Positions 38,401 through 59,100 are shown, numbered from the stretch's first letter. The stretch is 64,000 nucleotides of DNA from Lineus longissimus (GCF_910592395.1 NC_088313.1:17766500-17830499), one strand, 5' to 3'. Program-made: numbers and translations. The notes: generated by a model from the sequence alone, not told the origin.

Positions 38401-40040
38401 ATCAAACCTTCGGTGAAAACTGAAAATCAGCTATGTTGTAACATCTGCTTTCACAGTCATAAGGGCTTCTTATTTGGTAAGGGGTCTTCAAAAGTCAAAT
38501 TGGCAACAGGTCACCGATTTGTGGGGATATGAAATTGATGCTATCAGAAGCCCCTGGCCCTCCATTAGGGGCATGGACTCTTCGAAGAGTTACCTTCACA
38601 GCTTCTGGCTCATCTTGTACACCGTCTTCAACATTCTGATCCATTCTTTGAGATTTCAGCACTTTCTTGGCCTGAAGAGAAAGAAGAAGTAATAGGATTT
38701 AGACAGAACTTTGTAGACTTTAGATCTATCATTCAGTCAGATTCCACATCGAAATTTCACACCGATGCACGCTTTGAAATTGATCAGATCTCCGCATCTG
38801 CGATATTGAACATGCTGGGAAACATCTTTAGACTATCATGATATAAGGAAGTTACTACATAGCGATTAAAAAGGAACCCACAATCTTCCAGCGATAGGAA
38901 GTGCTCTGTCCAACAACACAACTTACCTCCTCTAACTTTGCATACTCCTCTATCGTCTCTTGATGTTCTCTCGGATCATAACCATTCCAACGATCCCTTT
39001 TCCCATCAAAATCAAAGTCGAGCTGTGGCTGGATGTATTCATCTGGGGCAATCTTGTCTCCTGTGAATCTGGCACCAATTTTCCTCGGTCTCTGCAAGTC
39101 GGAAGTGAAAGAAGAGTGAAATCTAGAGTCATAACTTTTTAGAATAAGTTGACTGATGACTTCAGGCACACTGATAACAAAGTTTCTCTGCTGCTCCACA
39201 TGTTGAGAGATCAAATTATGCCAAATAGCAAATCTAATAGTATAAAACACCAACTGGGTAAAGATGGTTGACATGCAGCTATACCAACCTCCAAACAGTC
39301 ACTCTTCTTGTGTGTCATAGCACCACAGTTTTCACAGGCACCTTTTCTGAATTTGGTGGCTATGCTGCCCTCTTTGATTCCTCTCTTGTACCACGCACCC
39401 ATCTCGGCAAACTTTTTGACCTTCTCATCTTGGACCCTTTGATGGTTGAGGGTGGGTGCCATGGCTCCAAAGTACCATGGAGCCTGCATGATGTACTGGG
39501 GGATGTGAGGGTTGATATCTCTGGAAGACAAAACCAACAAGGTGAAAATAATCATTCAATGCTGTAAAGAGGTTTAATAATGCAACTTGTATTCATTTTT
39601 GAGAGTAGGATTCATTAAACCCTTAACCAAGGGCAACTATTGCACAAAAAGTAAGACTTGTTTATCTATTTGTTCTCCTCAGACATCAGAAATTATTTCA
39701 AATTCCTTACTTTACATTTCAAAGTTTTGACATGTGATTTGTCTATTTTTAACTTTGTCCATATTCACTGACCACAAGTAGTAGCTCAATGCAAAATGAC
39801 CAACCTCAAAGGTGACCACAGATTCATACTCAGTTTCCAGTTAAGATCTACTTACTTTCCCTCTTCATCTTTCATAGCAGGTGCTGTACCAGCTTTCCTG
39901 GCCTCTTCCAGCTCTTTCAGTTTCTTCCAATCCTCCCTCTTTTTCCCAGGGGGTCCCTCGTCTATCCCACCTCCACCGTCCTCCTCCTCCTTCAGCTTCT
40001 TTGCCACCACAGAGGGTGGCATGTTTAAAACAAACGACAT
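35436..40040 (-). CDS. SLU7: Pre-mRNA-splicing factor SLU7. Complete CDS in 12 coding exons, about 594 aa.
   Basis: Minus-strand exons 40040..39856, 39520..39289, 39091..38927, 38671..38594, 38246..38014, 37810..37743, 37415..37219, 37086..36982, 36669..36562, 36431..36354, 36054..35899 and 35615..35436. All are GT-AG with consistent phases and total 1785 nt. Diagnostic segments: [47 protein letters not shown]...[79 protein letters not shown], the CCHC zinc knuckle, [58 protein letters not shown]...[44 protein letters not shown], the Lys-rich tract, and the C-terminus [55 protein letters not shown]. An acceptor upstream of the ATG implies a 5'UTR exon beyond 40050. Confidence 0.85.
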
Positions 40041-41261: not shown

Positions 41262-44200
41262 ATGCTTGGGAGTAAAACACTTTGGGGTGGATTGAAACAG
41301 GTGTTGCATTCCTGCAGACTCCCTGCAACCAGTAATGGTTCATCCATTGGCCAATTAAGATGGGCTACACATACCAGTAAACTGAAAACTAGACGGCAGA
41401 AACCATATGGAATTCGGAGTAAAAGGAATAGTTTACCATTGATTGCTCAGGTAAATGGAATTGGTCCTAGTCTTCCAGAGTTCGAAGATGTTGAACAAAG
41501 GTTGAAAGAGATTGATGAGAGACTTGACAGATTGAAAGACAGTGAATCCCATGGTGATGAAAACTATCATGTTTTTGTTTCTGACATCAAAAACCAGATT
41601 CATGCAACCTATTCAAAACTGAAAGAAACTGTTGGTGACGAGCATTTTGAGGAATTAAATGAGGCGTTGGCTGAGAAGACGAAATTGAAAAAAAGGTTCA
41701 AAAGTCGCAGAGCGGAACCTAGACCCACCAATGATATGGATTATGGTACTCCAGACCCAACAGTGTCCATGAGTGAAGTCCCATGCCATGGTTGTGGAGC
41801 ACTCCTTCACTGCCAAGACCAAAACATTCAGGGTTACATCCCCAGTCAAAAGTTCATACCGCTTGAAAGAGAAGGACTTGAAAAGACATTGTGTCAGAGG
41901 TGTCACTTATTGAAAAATCATAACATTTGTCTAAACATTCGAATGGATCCTAAAGAATTTGAGCGAATTATACAGGAAATCCGCCCCAAAGTAGCCTTAG
42001 TGATTGTGATTGTTGACTTAGTGGACATGCCCAATAGTATCATAAGAAATTTATTGGAGATGGTTGGGCACAAGCATCATTTTTACATTGTGGGAAATAA
42101 AGTGGATTTACTTCCAAGGGATGGACAAGGGTTCTTAGATCGTGTTCGTAGAAGTTTGGAGAGGTCATGTGCTGATTATGGGCTGAATGGAAAGTGTGTC
42201 AGACATACTTGCCTTGTGAGTGCCAAAACTGGATATGGTATTGAGGAACTTGTGACAAAGCTGTTCAGCCAGTGGGATAGAAAAGGTGAGAAAATGTGGC
42301 AGGCGATTTCTGTTTTTGGTGTAAAAATGAATATTAGCCTCTTGTCAGGCTTGGCTCCGTGGTGTTTAAAAACTTCCAATAATAAAATAATGAGTAAGAA
42401 CATAAAATAATGATCTACATATGTGCTATGTCGCTGATTTCAATTAATTGTCACTGATGCGAAACAAAGACAATTTAACTGGTTGGGCTATCTTGAGGAT
42501 GGAGAAATCCCGACTTCACCTCTCTAAGGAGAAAGGTTCCACGGCAGACAGACCAGAGGTGCAGACTTGTTGATGCCTAATGCTCTCTGTAAAGCTTTGA
42601 GTTTCATGCTGACGATGATTTCAACTGCTGTATTGTTATATTGCAGGTGATGTATATCTTATTGGCAGTACTAATGTTGGCAAGTCATCTCTTTTCAATG
42701 CCATGTTATCGTCGGATTATTGCCGTTCTAGAGCCAGGGAATTAATCAGTCGTGCTACAACATCGACATGGCCAGGTAAGTTGTCTAGTCATTCCCTAGT
42801 CAATCATCAGTGCTGCTCGACTGGTTAATATAGGCCAAGTGGTCTGATTGTTATGAATTTGCAGCAATTGTAATGCAGAAGTTACTTCTATTAGGTCACT
42901 CTTTGGTTTATCGGTACGCACTTGTATCCTTTTCCAGGGACAACTCTGAGTCTTCTGAAGTTCCCCATCTCAAGGCCATCAAGAAAGGGGCTTTTCAACC
43001 GCACCCAACGGCTCATCAACAGCAGGAATGAGGCAGCACAGGAGGCTAAGATGGCACGGAAGGAACGCGAGGTTGATAAACTGCCTCGAACAGACAGGTG
43101 GAAATCATTGATAGGTATGATCATCCGAGTCTTATCTAGTGTCTCGGCAGTCTTTTTACCTCACTACTCTAGGTTGGAGAGTCTGTTGTTTTTGTTCTGA
43201 TGTGATCAAAATCTTATTAAGTCTTCAAGCAACAGCTTACAACAATAACTCTGGAACAGATGTAGTGGAATGATGGTCCCTTTCTGCTAATTTGTATATC
43301 CTTGGGGGGCCTATAGGGATGTGCTTCACCTAGGGATGTGCTTCTTTCACATGAAAGCTTACTTTCAACTTACAGGTTTCATTGGCACAACAGTTGACTA
43401 CGCACCAGATGTCAAACCAGATGCGTCATTGGACAAGGGCCTCCACCCCAGTCTTGTGTCATTCTCCATGAAGGATGAAGAGTTAACGCCGAGCGAGTAT
43501 GATCAAGATAAACTCCAGCAACAACTCCTAAGGAAACGTACAGAGGAATTGTATGAAACTTCCAAATGGTGCTTTGATACCCCTGGTGTTATACAGCCTA
43601 ATCAGGTAAGACTCCCCCGCCCCCCTAGTATTTGATTGCAGGTGAACATTCCGGACAGGAGGCACCAGAGAGGTGATTGTGTACATTTTATGTGGATATA
43701 TCCTGGACTGTAATGGTATAATTCAAAGGTACTGCTATCGTAAAATATAGGGTAGCTCAAATTACAGGGACTCTTGGTTTTATATCTCAATCAAACTACA
43801 TGACATTCAAGTAATGTGGCTTCAAGCGATATCAAACTCCCATTATTCAGATTAATAGGAGTCCAACCCCTTTACCACTAGACCACACCTCCCTCAATGA
43901 CTTCTTTTTGTTCGACTTCTTTTTACTGTAGGTGATTAACTACCTAACTCAGCGAGAGCTTTCCAACCTCATCCTGTCGAAGTCGCTCCTCATACCAAGG
44001 ACGTTCATCCTTCACCCAGGGAAGACGCTATTTGTGGGTGGGTTGGGAAGGATAGACTATTTGGAGGTCAGTATATCAACGTTGTCATCACGCACAGGTT
44101 GCTTTATTCTCCATAGTGCATGTGCAATTACTGTATGCATGTACATGTTGGTAGTGAGTATTTTGTTGAAGTATTGAAGTTCGGCGTAACATAGTCATTG

Positions 44201-46927: not shown

Positions 46928-49333
46928 CTAGTCCCGGTGTGGGTGAGCAAGTTGTTCATCAGATTGTGTCCTATGGGCTGCCCTGATATTATTCGGTTGA
47001 ATATCGTTATTGTTTTGTAAATCTCCATTTCTTGGATCCTCGGCCGCAGCATCTGCTCCATTCTCCTGTCCCCATTCATGTTGTGCCTCGGACGGTTTTT
47101 CACTGTCTAAATCTTCTGGGCTATAAATAACTTCATGGCACAGCGGACAACGATCCTGAACATATAACCACTTCCGCAAGCAAACACCATGAAAGAAATG
47201 ATGACAACGAGTAATGCGTGCGGTTTTCAACTCTTGATAGCAAATAGCACACACATCATTATGCAAGTCAATTTCTGCTGAAGTTGCTGAGGGCAGTGAG
47301 TTTATCTTATTCACAGCAGTCCGTCTTCGCATGAATGTTTTCCAACCTTCTTTTGCCTGAACCCAAATGTTGAAATAAGCATGTATACACATCATGCATG
47401 CTCTTATTGTCCCACCGGACTCAAACACCATAATCCAGGCTCCGTTACAAAATAAGAAAATCCCAAAGAAGAATTCAATGGTGCTTCCTGTTGAACGTAC
47501 ATAATATACATAGTCGTCTAATTCTTCCCAAAACGTGTCCCTGCATGCATCAACCATGAAGAGTGTGTACTGAAGTAATGATATTACAACTTTTAGTATG
47601 ACTTCAATACTAAAGGCTGTCACTGCCAACAGCCATGTACTAACAGTATGTTGGGTCCATAAATAGTACAGAAAACAACTTGGAAATATAATGAGGAAGG
47701 CACACATTGTCAGAACTCGGCTGTGTTTTGAAACAGACGTGTTCCGAGAAGCACTCAGTGACATCAATAAGGGGTAAACCATACTATGAACAAAATGTAA
47801 AATTGCAGTAGATAATAAACAGAAGTTTCTATACAGTCGTTGAACCCGTTTATCAGCGTCTAAACCAGTCAATCCAGTCTGTAATGCCAATATAAAGAAC
47901 AAAATTGCTGAAACTGAACCCATGTTTTGACCCTCTTCGTTTTCCGATCCAACGAATCCAGCAAAGAGAAGTCCAATATTTTGCGTGATGTATGAAACTA
48001 CACTTGTCATTCCTGATAGTGATATCACAGTGTCACAGCCATAGACCAATAGAAGCCTGCTAATAGCCCACAGGTTATCCACAGATAGTGTGTAGTAACC
48101 CAACTTGTTGTAGTTTTCAAACACTTGGTACCCACTTAGAAGAATAACTTGATAGACAAATCTAGTGATCCAGAACACACGAAGAACGTCAGGTACGTTA
48201 AGTCGTATCCATTGATTTTCAATGTAGCCTTGAATACCATAATGTCGAATCGCATACCGACCTAGCATGTAACCCATTAGCAATGAGTGGTAAATGTGCT
48301 TTAATTTTGTAACCAGTAGTAGTAGGAGTTCTACAATAGGAAATACCATTGCTATCATGGGCATGTTACATACGACACGATCAGGGAGGCCGACAAACTT
48401 ACACAGGGAGGGTAGGAGGTATGAAGAATAGGTGAAACATCGCATAAATGTTGAGAGATAATTTGTGTAGACTTCACGCCTCATCCACGGCGGTTCCACA
48501 CGCAGATTGTTGAAATTATAAGACAATCCCAACTGCAGCGTTAGATTGATTAGAAAAGTTCTAATATGCTGTGTCACTGCTTCTCCTGGGTCCTCTGATA
48601 ATGTCAATGGTTTCGAAAGTTTCATTGCCATGTTCCTGTTCCAGACATATGAGATGGCTACCATTCCCAGAGAGATAAGGTAAGTGTAGGTGTAGATCAA
48701 TTGCTCTGTTGGCAGGAAGAAGATCAGCAGCGCACAGATGAAACCTGAAAGAAGAGAGAGTAAATTGTTCTATAATTCCTAAATCAATGATCAGGCAAAA
48801 CATAGAAAAAGACTAAGTTCTAAGTTAACTTAGGACTATCTCAGCCCAACTGATCAGCCAAGGCCAGGGTATATAGATCCAGAAGGATTGTTTGCTTGGC
48901 TTTTATAATCAATGCCTGGGACAAATCAGAAGAGGGGGATTGTTCTCCACTTTCAGTTTCACTTCACTTCAGAGACGGTCAAAACTACGCCATGAACTTG
49001 ATGATTTTTACAGAAGATTGAAACAACAACAAAACAACCGCCGCAGTAGTACTAGTAATACTAGTAGTAGTAGTAGGCACCCAAAACATACCATTACCAA
49101 CGACGAGGGACACACAGTTTTTACTTACATATCAATGACACCAAGATCCAGATCAGGGCTTTCAGATTGATAACTGATTCTTCCGACGACAGAAACTCTG
49201 GGAAGAAAAACAGAAGGAAACTTCTGTTCAGCACGGAATCCAGGACGAAAAGTGGAGGGACTCTCATCACCACATCAAAAACAGCCATATATCTCGATCG
49301 AATCGGCATTTTATTGGCTCGGGGTGACTTCAA
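46928..49333 (-). CDS. RNF145/RNF139-family polytopic RING-H2 E3 ubiquitin ligase (RNF145-like), paralog A. Two coding exons.
   Basis: Minus-strand exon 1 49333 (or the second Met at 49309)..49129, with donor T|gtaagt. Exon 2 48744..46928, with acceptor ctttcag, phase 1, 1817 nt. Multi-pass hydrophobic body, then the C-terminal RING-H2 CAICYQELKTARITRCHHFFHGVCLRKWLYVQDRCPLCHEV (compare human RNF145 ...TPCNHYFHALCLRKWLYIQDTCPMCH) and an acidic tail. Exon 1 (MPIRSRYMAVFDVVMRVPPLFVLD...) is homologous to exon 1 of paralog B, with the same intron position and phase. Confidence 0.8.
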
Positions 49334-49797
49334 AGGAAACCTGGGATGTTTATGATTTACAATATATAGGTTTTACTAGTGTAATTTCATATCTTGGCAG
49401 CAAAATCAGGAAGTTTTTATCATTTTTATGTTGACAGTTCCAGCCCATTGAATGACCAATTCCTGTTTAAACTGCGCATGCGTCAAGCTAGACTTCATTT
49501 TGCGTATTGATATAAAATTTTACATTTTTACAAAAAATGCTAAAATAGCCTCTAATATACATCATTTAAAATATAAATACCTACTAACTAACGTCATGAT
49601 ACTTTTTGGATGTTTTAAAGATGTTAGCTGTGTGTAATTACTGAATACATATTGAACTAATTTGTTCGTGGAATGCTTTCCGTAGTCAAAATCTTTGGGT
49701 GTTGTTAGGCCCCCAAAAATAAATCCTGAAAAATCTTAGAAAACCTTTCATATTTCGCCTATTTATGCAGAGTTCAAGTTAAACAAACGGCCTAAAG
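49334..49797. promoter_or_regulatory. Shared bidirectional promoter / intergenic region between the two head-to-head RNF145-like paralogs.
   Basis: It is only about 465-490 bp between the divergent start codons. It contains ctgcgcatgcgtc (49470-49482), close to the palindromic NRF1-type GCGCATGCGC element. The rest is AT-rich with no obvious TATA box. Confidence 0.4.
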
Positions 49798-52165
49798 ATG
49801 CCTCGAATAACTAAAGATCATATTATGCTTTGTGCCCATGTCATTCTTCGGGTACCAGCCCTATTTCTTATGGATTGTTGGTACAAAACCAACCCGGAAG
49901 CAATCTTGGAAAGATATGGAATTGGAATGGGCCACATCAGAGATGCAGAAATGATCCTCTCTTCTCTGTATTATGCAGGTAACATGTCACTCATATAGCA
50001 ACCTAATTCATTTAGTGTAGATGTTGGGAATGAATTGTTAGGTGTCCATCCTTCAAAGAGGCCCAAGTCACAATCTTGAAATTATAAGGACAAGGAGGAC
50101 AATGCAACAACCACTGAACCAGTTAATCACCAACAACTGCACATCCTGGGCTGGCCAATTCTAGAAGAGTGTTGAAGACAAGGCAGGAAAACCAATGTTA
50201 ACAAGATCTTCATTTGTGTTATTCAATCATGCTTGATAAATTTTTGTACCTGTTCTTGTTTCAGTCATCCTGATTGCTGTGGCGCTGATGTTTCTTCCCA
50301 TGGATATGCTGTTCCAGCTCTACCTTCACATCTTGTGTGGTGGACTCCTTCTCCTGGCACACTTCACTGCCTTCAAGTATGTTGAAGAAGAGAAAGCAGA
50401 GGAAAATCTACATTCGTCCGTCTTTGATGACAATGGCAGCATGTACAGGCTGGGGATGCATCTTGTAATTCAAGTGATTCTAAGCTCTGTTGTGGCATAC
50501 TTGATGCAGATCAAAGACTGGACAAGATTCATGTTACTCATGTACACATTGCCAATGATCGCAAGGGCAATCAATTTTCCTGTAACTGAACTTCATGTGG
50601 TACACAACTTCTCAGCCATTTTTACCATGCTTATGACCCTAATGGTTGTTTTTAACCATGTTGGGACCACCATCGATACAGTGAAGACAGGACTAAACAA
50701 TGCCCATGCTATGGTACAGAACATTGGTTGGCTCCACTTCTTTTTTACTCTTGTGGACTGGTTCCACATCCCACCTCAGTTCTTCGTCTTCTGGGTCATG
50801 ACCTTCCTAGCAGAGTTATACAAATTTACCTTTGTAAAGAACTACCAAGATGGTGTGGTCATAATTCTATTGGCAACTGTGGGGGAGTGTTGCTCCACCC
50901 CTATCAGTCTGATTGGATTGTGTATAACTGTGTCTTATACATCATGGTTCATCTTGACTTTGACTAAACTTTATCTAAAAGGCTGGGAAGGTATGAATCT
51001 GGAACGGGAGCAGACTGGATGGACCGAGGGTTTCACAATGCTACTCTTGGGAGTGCAGACTGACATTATGGAGCTAAAGGCAGCTACGCGGGCATTCTTG
51101 ATGAGTATAGTCTTATTCATTGTGGTGTTATCACTCATCCAATCAATGTATGAACTCACTGATCCAGTTCTCCTTTCACTAAGTGCGTCCCACAGCCGGA
51201 ATGTTGTACGCCACATCAAAACTGTCCTCCTCGCCACTTTCCTCTGGATGTTTCCCCTGCTAATGACATGGGCCATTTGTCAGTTCTTTGACCTGGATTT
51301 CTGGCTTTTGGTCATTATATCTAGTTGTTTGTTGACATCCATGCAAGTGTTTGGATCACTTGTTGTGTACTCTTTGTTCATCTACGATTCATTATTGACT
51401 GAACCTTGGGAAAACTTAGATGATGTTGTCTATTATGCGAGGGCAGTTACAAGAGTCTTGGAATTTGTTGTTGCAGTATTCGTTGTGTTGTACGGTGCTA
51501 AAGAATCTGTTTATGGGGAATGGAGTTGGATAAATTCCTCTATTTTAATCATACATTTCTACTTTAATGTCTGGCAGAGGTTGCAGACGGGCTGGAAAAG
51601 TTTCCTCCTGAGACGTAAGGCGGTGCAGAAAATTGAATCACTGCCACTAGCTTCGCCAGAACAACTTGAGGAATGCAATGATCTTTGTGCTATCTGCTTT
51701 CAAGAAATGACATGTGCTCATATCACGCCTTGTAAGCATTTCTTTCATGGTATATGTCTCCGTAAGTGGCTCTATGTACAGGACACCTGCCCCATCTGCC
51801 ACCAGGTTATAAACTTTCCAAATGATGTATCAGAAGATGAGTCGGCCGATGTACCTGATGCTGGAATAAGAAATGATGTAGTTCCACCACCTGCTAATGA
51901 AGCGGAAGACAACCATGCTGGAAATGCAGATGAGGACGGTTTGGAAAATAGATTCTTAATAGAAAATAACGACTCTGATGAATGGGAAGATGTGGATGAG
52001 GAGGAGATCATTGGATACGAAGGTGGTGACAGTCACAGCGATTATGAGAGCACGGATTCTCTCAGCGATTTTGAACAGAATCCGTCTGAAAGGAAAGCCG
52101 ACTTGGAATCTGATCAGGTGCGCCCCAAGGTTGACGGTGCTGGGGACAATGAGGCTAATTTGTGA
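49798..52165 (+). CDS. RNF145/RNF139-family polytopic RING-H2 E3 ubiquitin ligase (RNF145-like), paralog B. Two coding exons, about 694 aa.
   Basis: Exon 1 49798..49978 (MPRITKDHIMLCAHVILRVPALFLMDCWYKTNPEAILERYGIGMGHIRDAEMILSSLYYA; donor g|gtaaca, phase 1). Exon 2 50265..52165 (acceptor tgtttcag). The RING-H2 is CAICFQEMTCAHITPCKHFFHGICLRKWLYVQDTCPICHQV, followed by a D/E-rich tail. The body aligns to paralog A, e.g. DDVVYYARAVTRVLEFVVAVFVVLYGA versus DDYVYYVRSTGSTIEFFFGIFLFCNGA. Confidence 0.8.
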
Positions 52166-53730: not shown

Positions 53731-54620
53731 TTCGACCTCTGTGACCTTGAAAAGTAGGTCAAATCAAAGAAGACCCGGGTGACACATTGAATGGTTGTAA
53801 GAATTAGATGTACCTATGATATAAAATTGGTGCCAATCGGGCAAGTCATTAACTAGGAATAATGGCATTTTGAAGAATTTAGGATTTGGCCCCCTCCCTG
53901 GAGGCCAAACGGCAAATCAAATCGCACCAAACTTCGGTACCTGAGATCACCTGACCAAGGGGTACATGTGTACTTAATTTGTGATCAATAGTCATTGCAG
54001 TTAAGAAACGTGCCATAGTTACGGCCTGACGGCGAATTTAGGCCATTTGGCCTCTGTGACCTTGACAAGAAGGTCAAATTAAAAACCTGTGTGACATATA
54101 CTGTATGGTGGTTAGATGTACCCATGATATCAAATTGGTGGCATTCGGGCAGGAAGTTGAGGAATAATCACATTTTTAAGGTTTTTGGATTTTGCCCCCT
54201 GGTGGTCAAGTAATGAATCATATTGGACCAAACTTCGGTCCCTGAGATCACCTGACTAAGGGGTAAATGTGTACCAAATTTGGTATCAATAGTCATTGCA
54301 GTTTAGAAACGTGCCATCGTTACATCCTAACGGCCAATTTACACCATTTGACCTCTGTGACCTTGAAAAGGAGGTCAAATCAAAAACCCGGAGGATATAT
54401 GATGCACCTTTGCTAGAAGTACCTACCATATTTTTTTCAAAATTTCATGACTACTATTAAGGGAGATATTGCATATTTTCACTTTTAACGTTTGGCCCCC
54501 TGGTGGCCAAACCATGAAACGAATCGGACCGAAACTTGGTCTCCCAGGTGTCATTACATAAGGGTACATGTGTACCAAGTTTCAACTCAATAGCTCTAAC
54601 AGTTACGAAACGTGCCCTGC
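53731..54620. repeat. Tandem repeat, about 300-315 bp unit, roughly 3 copies (53731-54043, 54044-54343, 54344-~54620).
   Basis: Recurring blocks: c(c/a)tttg(g/a)cctctgtgaccttga(c/a)aag(t/g)aggtcaaat(c/t)aaa..., ...ggccccctggtggccaaac..gaa(t/a)c.gaccaaacttcggtccctgagatcacctgac(c/t)aaggggta(c/a)atgtgtac(c/t)aa(a/t)tt.g.atcaatagtcattgcagtt(t/a)agaaacgtgccat.gttac.. are read three times in series. Confidence 0.7.
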
Positions 54621-54622
54621 TA

Positions 54623-54632
54623 ACGGACGACG

Positions 54633-54715
<83 letters not shown>

Positions 54716-54716
54716 A
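54623..54716. repeat. (GAC)n microsatellite, about 28-31 units, directly abutting the end of the ~300-bp tandem repeat.
   Basis: cggacgacggacgacgacgacgacgac... read directly. It generates the poly-R / poly-S / poly-D artefact ORFs 54457..54774, 54536..54763 and 54620..54808. Confidence 0.95.
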
Positions 54717-55106
54717 CGACGGACGCCACGGTATGGGATAAGCTCACCTCTGCTAAGAGGTGAGCTAAAAACAAAACATTTTCTTGTACATATGTAAGAC
54801 ACGTTCATAGCTTTATTTAGTTCGAGGCCTCGCCTTCATTTCACATGCGATGCATCACTAACAGGCACTAAATGGTTGTGAAGTACAACAGGGACATCAG
54901 CAGAGCTATGCTTTCTGTCCCCATCTAATATGCAGAGTAGAAGCTGACAATGAGCATAAAACAACCACATTGTTATAATTTCAACAGACTTTGTAAAAAC
55001 GTGTTTAGCACAGTTAACTGTCCAGCACAATTAGTCCAGCGCCATAATAGTTCCTTCTGAAGTCGAACGAATGACAGACTCCTAAATCCTTGAAAATCTC
55101 TATCCC

Positions 55107-58100
55107 TTACAATCCTAAAGTTGATTCCAATTCTTCAGAGTCCAACAGCGCCTGGAAAAAAGCAGAAGTCATCAGACACTGGTAGCATTATGTTTCTTCG
55201 TGCTCCAAATAATCACAAGGATGGGAAACAATGTGAACATCTGTTTTGAACGACTCCTCAGTGTTGTTTTGGGTCTGAATCCCCATCCCCAGGTTTCATT
55301 TGTCAAAACTCCCCATTTTTACAAGTGCATCTTAGGGTTCACTTTACTCTGATGTGTGTAATGGCCATTTACATTTTGGCATGAAATTGGATGACTTGAT
55401 GTCGTCAAGGGACCAAACTTACTCGTATGATATCTAATCCACCAATCAATTCTCCATTTACGTAAAGTTGTGGATAAGTTGGCCAATCAGAGAACTTCTT
55501 AAGACCCTGCCGTACTTCTTCATCTTTAAGGATGTCGAACGTTTCATACTTTACCCTGGAACATAAAACACACTCAAGTCACAGCGAGATGTCTTGTGGC
55601 CAAGCCGGAAAATTGACAAAATTCCAGGTCACCCATTTGCAGATATGATCATCAACATGATTCGTTGATCTTAGCTTAAAAACGTAAAATCTACTGGTAC
55701 ATATAATTCACCTCAGCTAGAAACCATTTCGATGATAATGGGATATTTGCCAAATAAAAACTCCTTACTCTGTGTCATTCAGGATACCAACTGTGGTCCG
55801 ACTAAATCCACACTGAGGCGCATCAGGGGATCCCTTCATGAATAGCATAACTGGAGCTTTGTTGACTAGTGCTTTTAACCTGAAACATTGAAGCAAGAAC
55901 TTGAGTTATCAGCACCAGAAGTCACAATTTTACCAAATCATTTTGGAAAGTATGCAGACTTCCACATCACATTTAAATGGTTGAATTAAACAGAAAACAA
56001 ACAGCTTATCATCCTTCTCTTACCTGTCATCCAAACTTCCAGACTTAGGAAGAACAGATTGGGACTCGTTATCTTTACTCCCAGTCTTAGGAAGAGAAGA
56101 TTGGAACTCATTGTCTTCAATCATCTGTTTGATAATGTCCAGACCACCAATCAGCTCACCATCGATATAAAGCTGAGGGTATGTGGGCCAGTTGGAATAT
56201 TTTTTCAAACCTGCAATGCAGAAGATACTCTCATGATTGTCCATTTCAGAATCATGAAACAGAATGGAATCCATCTCATTCAAGGTGAGTGCCCCTGGTG
56301 GCGTTTGTCTGTGGTGGCAAAACCAAATGTCTGACTTCTGGAGACAACTTTTGAGGTTTCCACCATCACCCTAGCCGTGACGTCAAAATCAACAATAGAC
56401 TGACCACATAACTCGATAAAGTTCAGCCAAGAGGTGCTCATCTGGAAAGAAGCAAATTGAATAACTTGTTGCCAAATTGTTGTAATGTCTCACCTTCTCT
56501 AACACTGTTGTCTTCTAGAATATTAAAAGATCCATACTTCACGTTCTCTTGTTTAAAGATGCCGACTATTTCTCTGCTGAATTCTGAAAGTTGCAAAAAA
56601 AGACAGTTCGAAATATGATGCATCAAAGACTAACACTCTGGAATAAGAGGTCGAAGACTACTTTTCGTGCACCCATCCTGGCCTTTTGAAAAAAGAAAGA
56701 TTTTCACCTTATGAAACCAAATGACAGAAGCTCAGTATAGTCTAAAACATGGCATGAATGTCATGGGTAGCCATGTTGATAGAAACTGCGCACAAATATG
56801 ACAGATAAAACACTGGTAAATAAAGACGAATGGAAATTTTTAAGACAGATCTTGATATTGAAAGATAGCGAGACAGAATCTGGTGTATGTTCATTCTCGC
56901 TGTTATGCCAGCTGTCATGTTTGTGTGTTTACAAGTAGGAGCCACTCTGGATGAAAAGCTAAGCAGGTTGCTTAACAAATTTTGTTCAAAAAACTGCCTT
57001 ACTACATTTTGGTTCCGCTTGAGTTCCCTTCATGAACAGCATAACTGGGCTTTGATTTATTACCGTCTTCAACCGAGCATTCAAATCCTGGAAATCAAAA
57101 ACACTATTCAGTTATAAAACATGATATGAATACTTTAGTTATTGCAATTGTGGCAAAAACATGCTCATTATGAAAAGACTTCTCTACATACACTGTAATC
57201 TGCCATCTGAGTGGTACAAGTACTTCTGGTTAGCTTGAAATAACTGGAATAACCCAGCACTCATCTGGAAGTTTAAAGTGTCTCTAGTCTTTATGTCAAG
57301 TTTTACTCAAAACATCCAAGATGTTTGAAATAGCTTGTCCCCGTCCCCACTGCCAGGTAACTATGGTAAAATCAGGATCTAACCCATAACTTTACTATAG
57401 GATACTTTTCTATAGGAGTGATCCCCAACCTTGGGAATTTGAAGCCCGATCATGAAGGGCACCACTTCAAAAACATACCTCTTCTGCAGGTGGAGACGAG
57501 GCAGTAGCAACTCCTGTCATACTTTCAGCAAACGTTTTCACTTTTTTGGTCAGTTCAGGAGGATGAGCACCATTCAAGCGATATACTACACTGTCGTCTT
57601 TGATGAACACAAAAGTTGGTACAGCCTCTATCTCATATTTTTGGGAGACCTCTGGTAGTCCCTCGGCCTCAACTACAATGAACTTGATATTGACAGAAGG
57701 GACATCCTTCATTATCTCTGCAAGTACTTCATTCATCTGCTCACATTGTTTGGACCATTCTGCAGAGAAGTGTACCACAAGTACACACCTGAAATAGTAA
57801 ACAGAAGAAATGAGTTGGAGTGAATGATGAGGCATTGTCATTGACGTTCGATTCATTGACATTGACGATTGAATTGTAAGTTCTATTTCCTATGCTGGAA
57901 CATCGTGCCCTTTTTGCTGGAGCGGTTGTGGTCAGAATGAACTATAAAGGGACGACGTGACATCTCTGAAATGAGGAGTGATCACCACATCTTCACATGC
58001 GTTTGTGAAGAACTATGACTATGAGTATGATTCGAATCGAAGGAGATTCGAGGGACTATCTTTCCGTTTACCCCCATCCCCAGTCAGAGTTCCAGTTGGC

Positions 58101-58649: not shown

Positions 58650-59100
58650 TAATAAACCATTTAACACCTTCAGCACCGAACCACGTAGATCTATCTACGC
58701 GGCCCAAATCCCCCCTCTTGGAGCTGGTTGTCGGAGTCTCATGGACTTCATGAAAGAACTACGCCATCTCCATCTTCAGGGCAAGGTAGGAACTGAAAAT
58801 ACCGTGAAAATACGGTTGTGTCTTTTCAGTTCCTACCTTGCCCTGAAGATGGCGATGGCGTAGTACCTTTATGAAGTCATTTAAAGTTCTTAACTACGCC
58901 ATCGCCATCTTCAGGGCAAGGTAGGAACTGAAAAGACACAACGGTATTTTCACGGTATTTTCAGTTCCTACCTTGCTCTGAAGATGGCGATGGCGTAGTT
59001 CTTTCATGAAGTCCATGAGATTCCGATAACCAGCTCAGGAGGGGGGATTTGGACCACGTAGATCTGCTTGGTTCGGCGCTGAAGGTGTTAATGGGAACTC
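58650..59100. repeat. Nested palindromic (double-hairpin) repeat. The outer inverted arms are about 200 bp each, and each arm contains its own perfect palindrome of about 45 bp.
   Basis: The outer arm 58668-58740 ...cagcaccgaaccacgtagatct..gcggcccaaatcccccctc... is the reverse complement of 59030-59090 ...gaggggggatttggaccacgtagatctgcttggttcggcgctgaagg. The inner palindrome cttcagggcaaggtaggaactgaaaa...ttttcagttcctaccttgccctgaag sits at 58775-58860 and again at 58900-58985. The block is flanked by three copies of the module gattcatac.ggtga.a.a.cat (58441-58500, 59140-59190, 59195-59225). Confidence 0.75.

Follow-up and report, generated by a model that had tools for sequence, protein, structure and literature searches.

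The genome of the ribbon worm Lineus longissimus (Nemertea) carries, in the 64-kb window that is the whole stretch of DNA analysed here (NC_088313.1:17766500-17830499; approximately 40% GC), two intact two-exon genes in divergent orientation, which encode relatives of the ubiquitin ligases RNF139 (also called TRC8) and RNF145. Work in mammals treats these two proteins as ligases with partly overlapping roles in the homeostasis of cholesterol and membrane lipids. The two Lineus genes, here called A and B, are very probably the single Lineus orthologues of RNF139/TRC8 and RNF145, respectively, and have stood head-to-head since an ancient inverted tandem duplication, an arrangement that some phyla have retained. 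Both genes are already annotated and the family is well known, while the deep conservation of the arrangement appears to be previously undescribed, and would add an example of an ancient, deeply conserved divergent paralog pair like COL4A1/COL4A2.

The largest open frames in the window lie at 46928-48700 on the minus strand and at 50279-52165 on the plus strand, and the gene models were built by extending each of them as far as the closest splice acceptor and adding a small exon upstream. Gene A, on the minus strand, begins with MPIRSRYMAVFDVVMRVPPLF in a first coding exon of 181 nt (49129..49309), continues with an intron of 384 nt (48745..49128, GTAAGT...polypyrimidine-CAG) that holds a (AGTAGTACT)n microsatellite at 49045-49076, and ends in a second exon (46928..48744, stop included) that encodes residues 61-665, comprising most of the TRC8_N domain, the RING-H2 and an acidic tail. 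Gene B, on the plus strand, begins with MPRITKDHIMLCAHVILRVPALF in a first coding exon that is also of 181 nt (49798..49978), followed by an intron of 286 nt (49979..50264, GTAACA...CAG) and by a second exon (50265..52165, stop included) for residues 61-693, with TRC8_N, the RING-H2 and a disordered acidic tail. Since both first exons measure exactly 181 nt, both introns are in phase 1 and split codon 61, and the split residue 61 of A aligns with the split residue 61 of B in the protein alignment. The products, of 665 and 693 residues, match the NCBI (RefSeq) proteins of Lineus longissimus named “protein TRC8 homolog” and “RING finger protein 145-like”, respectively, at 100% identity along the whole length, which confirms the splice models, and the exact proteins were found on one genomic contig only. 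An earlier note on this stretch, made from the sequence alone, had the coordinates and the structure right, namely two divergent genes, each with a small first exon, a phase-1 intron and a huge second exon. The shared region that it placed between them exists, but measures 488 bp from ATG to ATG (49310..49797) and not some 470 bp; this spacer is presumed to contain the divergent promoter region and the 5' untranslated regions.

The two proteins share the architecture of vertebrate RNF139/TRC8 and RNF145, in which TRC8_N is followed by a RING-H2 domain. The Pfam model TRC8_N (PF13705) matches A with an E value of 5.7e-153 (residues 9-528, aligned to positions 2-494 of the 494-position profile) and B from end to end with an E value of 5.2e-123, and each protein also matches several Pfam RING models. 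The RING-H2 pattern C-x2-C-x11-C-x-H-x2-H-x2-C-x10-C-x2-C fits residues 559-596 of A and 535-572 of B, with all ligands (C3H2C3) retained in both. The tails that follow are rich in acidic residues (15 D+E against 5 K+R in the 65 residues of A, and 38 against 6 in the 117 residues of B), so that the C-terminal RING-H2 and acidic tail described in the earlier note are present in both proteins. AlphaFold models, with a mean predicted local distance difference test (pLDDT) of 81-83 and a predicted template modelling score (pTM) of 0.72-0.75, show approximately 14 long helices ahead of the RING in each protein, which agrees with the 12-14 transmembrane helices that had been predicted, and both acidic tails are disordered (residues 589-693 in B). 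The C-terminal extension of RNF145 is known to be longer than that of RNF139 (PMC5322959), a difference matched in Lineus by the longer tail of B.

A full-length alignment gives 27% identity between A and B (BLASTP E value of 2e-68), less than the 35-45% previously judged by eye. The same figure is reported for human RNF145 and TRC8, whose relationship has so far been described only as that of closest relatives with 27% identity (PMC6292692). In homology searches the best matches of A and B form two non-overlapping sets: those of A are named “TRC8 homolog” or “RNF139-like” (45-60% identity), and those of B “RNF145-like” (42-58% identity), and each protein is 56-60% identical to its orthologue in the nemertean Tubulanus. 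A search with representatives gave 199 relatives at E <= 1e-30. Neighbour-joining (NJ) trees were built from 37 and 41 sequences on 570-580 well-aligned columns with 200 bootstraps; vertebrate sequences were retrieved with a chimeric bait modelled on the human proteins, and only database records entered the analyses. These trees resolve two clades, RNF145 and RNF139/TRC8, both of which have 100% bootstrap support and include vertebrate, amphioxus, echinoderm and spiralian members. The former contains fish RNF145 (Collichthys), amphioxus, sea-urchin, crinoid, millipede and spiralian genes together with Lineus B, and the latter contains hedgehog (Erinaceus) and fish (Sinocyclocheilus) RNF139, crinoid, amphioxus, arthropod (including Drosophila Trc8) and spiralian genes together with Lineus A. 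Both superclades were unchanged in a larger tree with representatives at 50% identity. Since both clades unite vertebrate and spiralian members with full support, gene A is, judged by the trees, the one-to-one orthologue of RNF139/TRC8 and gene B that of RNF145, and on the same grounds their duplication predates the split between protostomes and deuterostomes. Pfam, BLASTP and the trees agree that the two genes belong to one homologous TRC8/RNF145 family of polytopic RING-H2 ligases, as had been proposed; the description of both as RNF145-like paralogs has to be given up, as the two correspond to the vertebrate genes and are not additional to them. The locus therefore offers a concrete evolutionary origin for the RNF139/RNF145 pair.

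Beside these single orthologues, the oyster Saccostrea cucullata has a third TRC8_N gene (L008, 18000-19903), located 5.5 kb downstream of its RNF145 orthologue. In the tree this copy has a long branch and groups inside the RNF145 superclade, along with divergent proteins of Mytilus and Mactra (P0450, P0351), which suggests a bivalve-specific expansion.

The exon structure is informative about how the two genes arose. An intron common to both paralogs points to duplication at the DNA level and not to retroposition, and its shared position and phase fit the inverted tandem duplication proposed in the earlier note. The same structure is widespread: both genes of Tubulanus, Lingula, oyster, amphioxus and Antedon have large exons that start at residues 56-72, and in invertebrate RNF145 genes one large exon accounts for approximately 90% of the protein. 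In hedgehog RNF139 the coding sequence is likewise divided into two exons, by a phase-1 intron in the canonical codon 61 that aligns with the intron position of Lineus A; in this mammal (Erinaceus europaeus, L011) the intron measures 11 kb. Human RNF145, on the other hand, is reported with 16 exons (PMC7966793), against two coding exons each in Lineus A and B. These observations indicate that the two-coding-exon structure is ancestral and that the 16-exon human gene is derived, which implies intron gain on the vertebrate RNF145 lineage.

The head-to-head arrangement was found again in six other genomes, where the clade of each pair member was checked by tree and the spacer was measured between coding starts. 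The spacer is 479 bp in a close heteronemertean relative (L007, in which A and B are 92% and 90% identical in amino acids to those of Lineus), 341 bp in Tubulanus polymorphus (L001), 507 bp in the brachiopod Lingula anatina (L002), 2.3 kb in Saccostrea cucullata (L008), about 2.2 kb in the crinoid Antedon mediterranea (L009) and 4.3 kb in the amphioxus Branchiostoma belcheri (L003). The divergent pair is thus known from Nemertea (three genomes), Brachiopoda, Mollusca, Echinodermata (crinoid) and Cephalochordata, and the identity within pairs is about 27-32% in the genomes compared. The earlier suggestion to look for the same arrangement in related species was borne out: the pair is common to these five phylum-level groups and not peculiar to Lineus. 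No partner lies within 10 kb of the RNF145 loci of Lytechinus (sea urchin), Chamberlinius (millipede) and Owenia, nor within 10 kb of the TRC8/RNF139 loci of Tachypleus (horseshoe crab) and Erinaceus; in Owenia the TRC8-type and RNF145 genes are apparently on one chromosome. Human RNF145 maps to 5q33.3 (PMC7966793) and TRC8 is by its name a chromosome-8 gene, so that genes adjacent in Lineus are on different chromosomes in humans. Because the arrangement is common to groups on both sides of the bilaterian tree, the most economical reading of these distributions is that the last common ancestor of protostomes and deuterostomes already had the head-to-head pair, which would have been lost several times, with the vertebrate condition derived.

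In Branchiostoma belcheri a second RNF145 exon-1 start (MPLREHVSGWVERGVGVVLRVPSL...; L003, position 9680) is located in the spacer, 321 bp upstream of the annotated ATG, which suggests that the first exon was duplicated locally.

Pairs of this kind have been described before. Ancient conserved microsyntenic pairs, as a survey of metazoan genomes presents them, keep their adjacency and orientation across distant phyla, and so does RNF139-RNF145 (PMC3514665). Pairs of the COL4A1-COL4A2 type likewise consist of divergent paralogs that derive from an ancient inverted duplication and have a conserved orientation across phyla (PMC12141075, PMC3514665). The difference is that the COL4 and HSPD1-HSPE1 pairs are kept in vertebrates and their bidirectional promoters have been shown experimentally, whereas vertebrates no longer have RNF139 and RNF145 side by side, and a bidirectional promoter of this pair is putative. 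A literature search returned no paper that combines RNF145 and RNF139 with synteny, or RNF145 and TRC8 with head-to-head, and RNF139 and RNF145 do not appear in the main text of the microsynteny survey, the supplements of which could list the pair (PMC3514665).

The spacer itself has been examined for signs of a shared promoter. At 488 bp it lies within the <1 kb head-to-head distance used to define bidirectional-promoter gene pairs, as do the spacers of the close relative, Tubulanus and Lingula. Vertebrate bidirectional promoters typically consist of a CpG island with NRF1, GABPA or YY1 sites. The Lineus spacer does not carry this signature: it is AT-rich (32% GC, with an observed-to-expected CpG ratio of 0.71) and therefore not CpG-island-like. 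Compared with the close relative it is 61.6% identical, while the introns reach 46-51%, the level of a forced alignment, and differ three- to five-fold in length between the two species. Conservation is concentrated in a stretch beside the ATG of gene A (49310-49345) and in two blocks, of which the first (49440..49520, 70-80% identical) holds the CGCATGCG core and the second (49685..49725, 77-87% identical; GGGTGTTGTTAGGCCC..AATAAATC.TGAAAAATCT) is located 75-110 bp upstream of the ATG of gene B.

The NRF1-like core that the earlier note placed in the shared region is present, in the form of GCGCATGCG at 49474-49482. This is the sole copy in the 64 kb, where 0.04 would be expected (one or more occurred in 4 of 100 shuffles), and the close relative retains the 8-bp core of this 9-mer. 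The element matches 9 of the 12 consensus positions, but the Lineus spacer has no full YGCGCAYGCGCR site, and the spacers of Tubulanus, Lingula, oyster and amphioxus lack GCGCATGCG. The NRF1 site was therefore rejected as a deep regulatory signature, since it is kept in the close relative only and leaves the 12-bp consensus unmatched. Other elements of the spacers were noted in passing: that of Tubulanus (L001, 9660-10000) has tandem ETS/GABPA-like CCGGAA sites (CACCGGAAACCCGGAAGTCC), and that of Lineus has CAGGAAGT at 49406-49413, which is not conserved in the close relative.

A third gene is part of this picture. A GLRX3-like gene, with thioredoxin and glutaredoxin exons identified by Pfam and tblastx, occupies 55420..57862 on the minus strand, tail-to-tail with gene B; the Pfam Thioredoxin match is at 57467-57862, and tblastx links the gene to the neighbours found in millipede and amphioxus. 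A GLRX3-like gene is found behind RNF145 in the same relative orientation in Branchiostoma (L003), Chamberlinius (L005) and Antedon (L009), and it is absent at the corresponding position in Tubulanus and Lingula. Its retention in several lineages makes the conserved block one of three genes.

Taken together, these observations suggest the following history. One two-exon ancestor would have given rise to two genes by an inverted tandem duplication at the DNA level, before the protostome-deuterostome split, and the present head-to-head position in Lineus would be the original arrangement, retained in slowly rearranging phyla and lost elsewhere, including vertebrates. Divergent transcription from the 488-bp spacer, leading to coordinated expression of both genes, would be the likeliest account at the level of the locus, and shared cis-regulation may have helped to keep the genes together. 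A shared divergent promoter is a reasonable inference from geometry and local conservation.

Several points weigh against this account. The trees are distance-based (NJ), have no outgroup and include one named vertebrate RNF145 sequence only. They place the duplication, at the latest, before the protostome-deuterostome split; in an attempt at dating by non-bilaterians, the two named proteins among ten deep relatives looked up were both from bivalves, and a literature search was likewise empty. The partner is absent near five loci at which the examined gene is retained, and the arrangement is thus dispensable. The spacers of oyster, crinoid and amphioxus are far longer than the others, and k-mers and motifs common to the spacers of different phyla do not exceed the shuffled null.

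Part of this evidence leads to another interpretation, according to which the adjacency is a neutral relic in slowly rearranging genomes, with two independent promoters and a linkage that is not selected. Such a relic is favoured by the repeated losses, in five sampled lineages, and by the GLRX3 neighbour, which is tail-to-tail and unable to share a promoter and is nevertheless conserved about as widely; the range of spacer lengths, from 341 bp to 4.3 kb, and the lack of a motif common across phyla are also in its favour. It accounts less well for an orientation that is identical in all seven genomes with the pair, for spacers below 510 bp in four of the seven, and for spacer blocks that are conserved where synonymous sites are near saturation, and conserved 5'-5' pairs are, according to the microsynteny survey, enriched for co-regulation (PMC3514665). 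Neutrality is the main rival of divergent co-expression, and we would give it somewhat less than an even chance.

The resemblance between phyla could also be convergent, the product of independent, lineage-specific inverted duplications. Independent origins are frequent among tandem duplicates, 68% of the paralogous “conserved” pairs in the survey being of this kind (PMC3514665), and bivalves do have extra copies in the RNF145 clade. However, every pair consists of one RNF139/TRC8-clade member and one RNF145-clade member, with 100% bootstrap support, and the identity within pairs is only about 27-32%, which makes repeated origins extremely improbable.

Equally hard to credit is that one copy is a decaying or unexpressed pseudogene, for which no supporting point was found, as frames are intact and splice sites canonical in both genes, every RING ligand is kept, the similarity to the Tubulanus orthologues is high (56-60%) for both proteins, and the ratio of nonsynonymous to synonymous substitution rates (dN/dS) against the close heteronemertean, with which synonymous divergence (dS) is about 0.9-1.1, reaches only 0.047 in A and 0.046 in B. 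With dN/dS values of about 0.05, both genes are under strong purifying selection, and the earlier view of an old duplication with maintenance of both copies is upheld.

The reading of an ancient head-to-head duplication can be carried further, in a form that we put forward with more doubt than confidence: RNF139, RNF145 and GLRX3 would form an urbilaterian block, in which the two ligases have been held head-to-head for more than half a billion years by one compact bidirectional regulatory region. If this is true, the dosage of two endoplasmic reticulum (ER) ligases with common lipid-metabolic and ER-associated degradation (ERAD) substrates would be coupled, and vertebrates would have taken the unit apart and given each gene a regulation of its own, RNF145 for instance through LXR. 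The many invertebrate genomes in which the ligases stand promoter-to-promoter would provide a natural test system for obligatory co-expression and long-term promoter sharing.

With regard to function, each product is predicted to be a multi-pass ubiquitin ligase of the ER membrane, in which the C-terminal membrane helices would form a Hrd1-like core and the cytosolic RING-H2 behind it would serve to recruit an E2. Homology suggests that the role of both may be the regulated ERAD of membrane proteins, including lipid-metabolic enzymes. The mammalian substrates include HMG-CoA reductase for both ligases and SCAP and ADIPOR2 for RNF145 (PMC6292692, PMC5656429, PMC9531299), and mammalian TRC8 acts with signal peptide peptidase on tail-anchored proteins (PMC8922271). 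For the nemertean proteins a comparable biochemical activity is suggested by analogy with the vertebrate proteins only.

The C-terminal membrane half of A and B is Hrd1-like, with a Hrd1-type helix bundle directly before the RING, as in other membrane RING ligases of that type. The similarity to the ERAD ligases Hrd1/synoviolin and gp78/AMFR is limited to approximately 215-300 aligned residues with 8-15% identity, and Hrd1 has no counterpart to the N-terminal half of TRC8_N. A sterol-sensing-like region, which the earlier note had proposed to look for, is unsupported: the Pfam sterol-sensing model does not match A or B, no protein with such a domain is among the top matches by profile or fold, and the sterol-sensing domain of SCAP, HMGCR, NPC1 and Patched is accordingly not recognised in either protein. 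The Y-I/L-Y-F sequence in the N-terminal membrane region of RNF145 is a motif of the Insig-binding type (PMC6292692, PMC5322959). At the position of human YLYF, Lineus B and fish RNF145 read YLHI, amphioxus YTHI, Tubulanus YLYV and many spiralians YMY[ILV]; the literal motif is thus absent from Lineus B, and YLYF was rejected as a diagnostic of RNF145, since it varies even inside the RNF145 clade.

The remaining neighbours in the window were identified by open reading frame, Pfam, tblastx and PDB searches, and scans for Rfam families and tRNAs were empty. A plus-strand frame of 382 residues (41262-42410) runs towards the 3' end of gene A and represents the first large exon of a gene for a NOA1/YqeH-type GTPase; it matches nitric oxide-associated protein 1 in the PDB (8csp_9, E value of 4.7e-39) and has no Pfam match at E <= 0.001. 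Farther away, a minus-strand frame (38855-39274) matches the pre-mRNA splicing factor Slu7 (E value of 5e-11) and probably represents a single SLU7 exon. The intergenic DNA that separates gene B from the GLRX3-like gene contains a 301-bp unit repeated 2.1 times with 74% match (53915-54537) and a (GAC)31 microsatellite (54626-54721). Beyond the GLRX3-like gene, a 135-bp unit is repeated 1.9 times at 58757-59013; its consensus is seemingly palindromic internally, and it may represent a transposon terminal structure.

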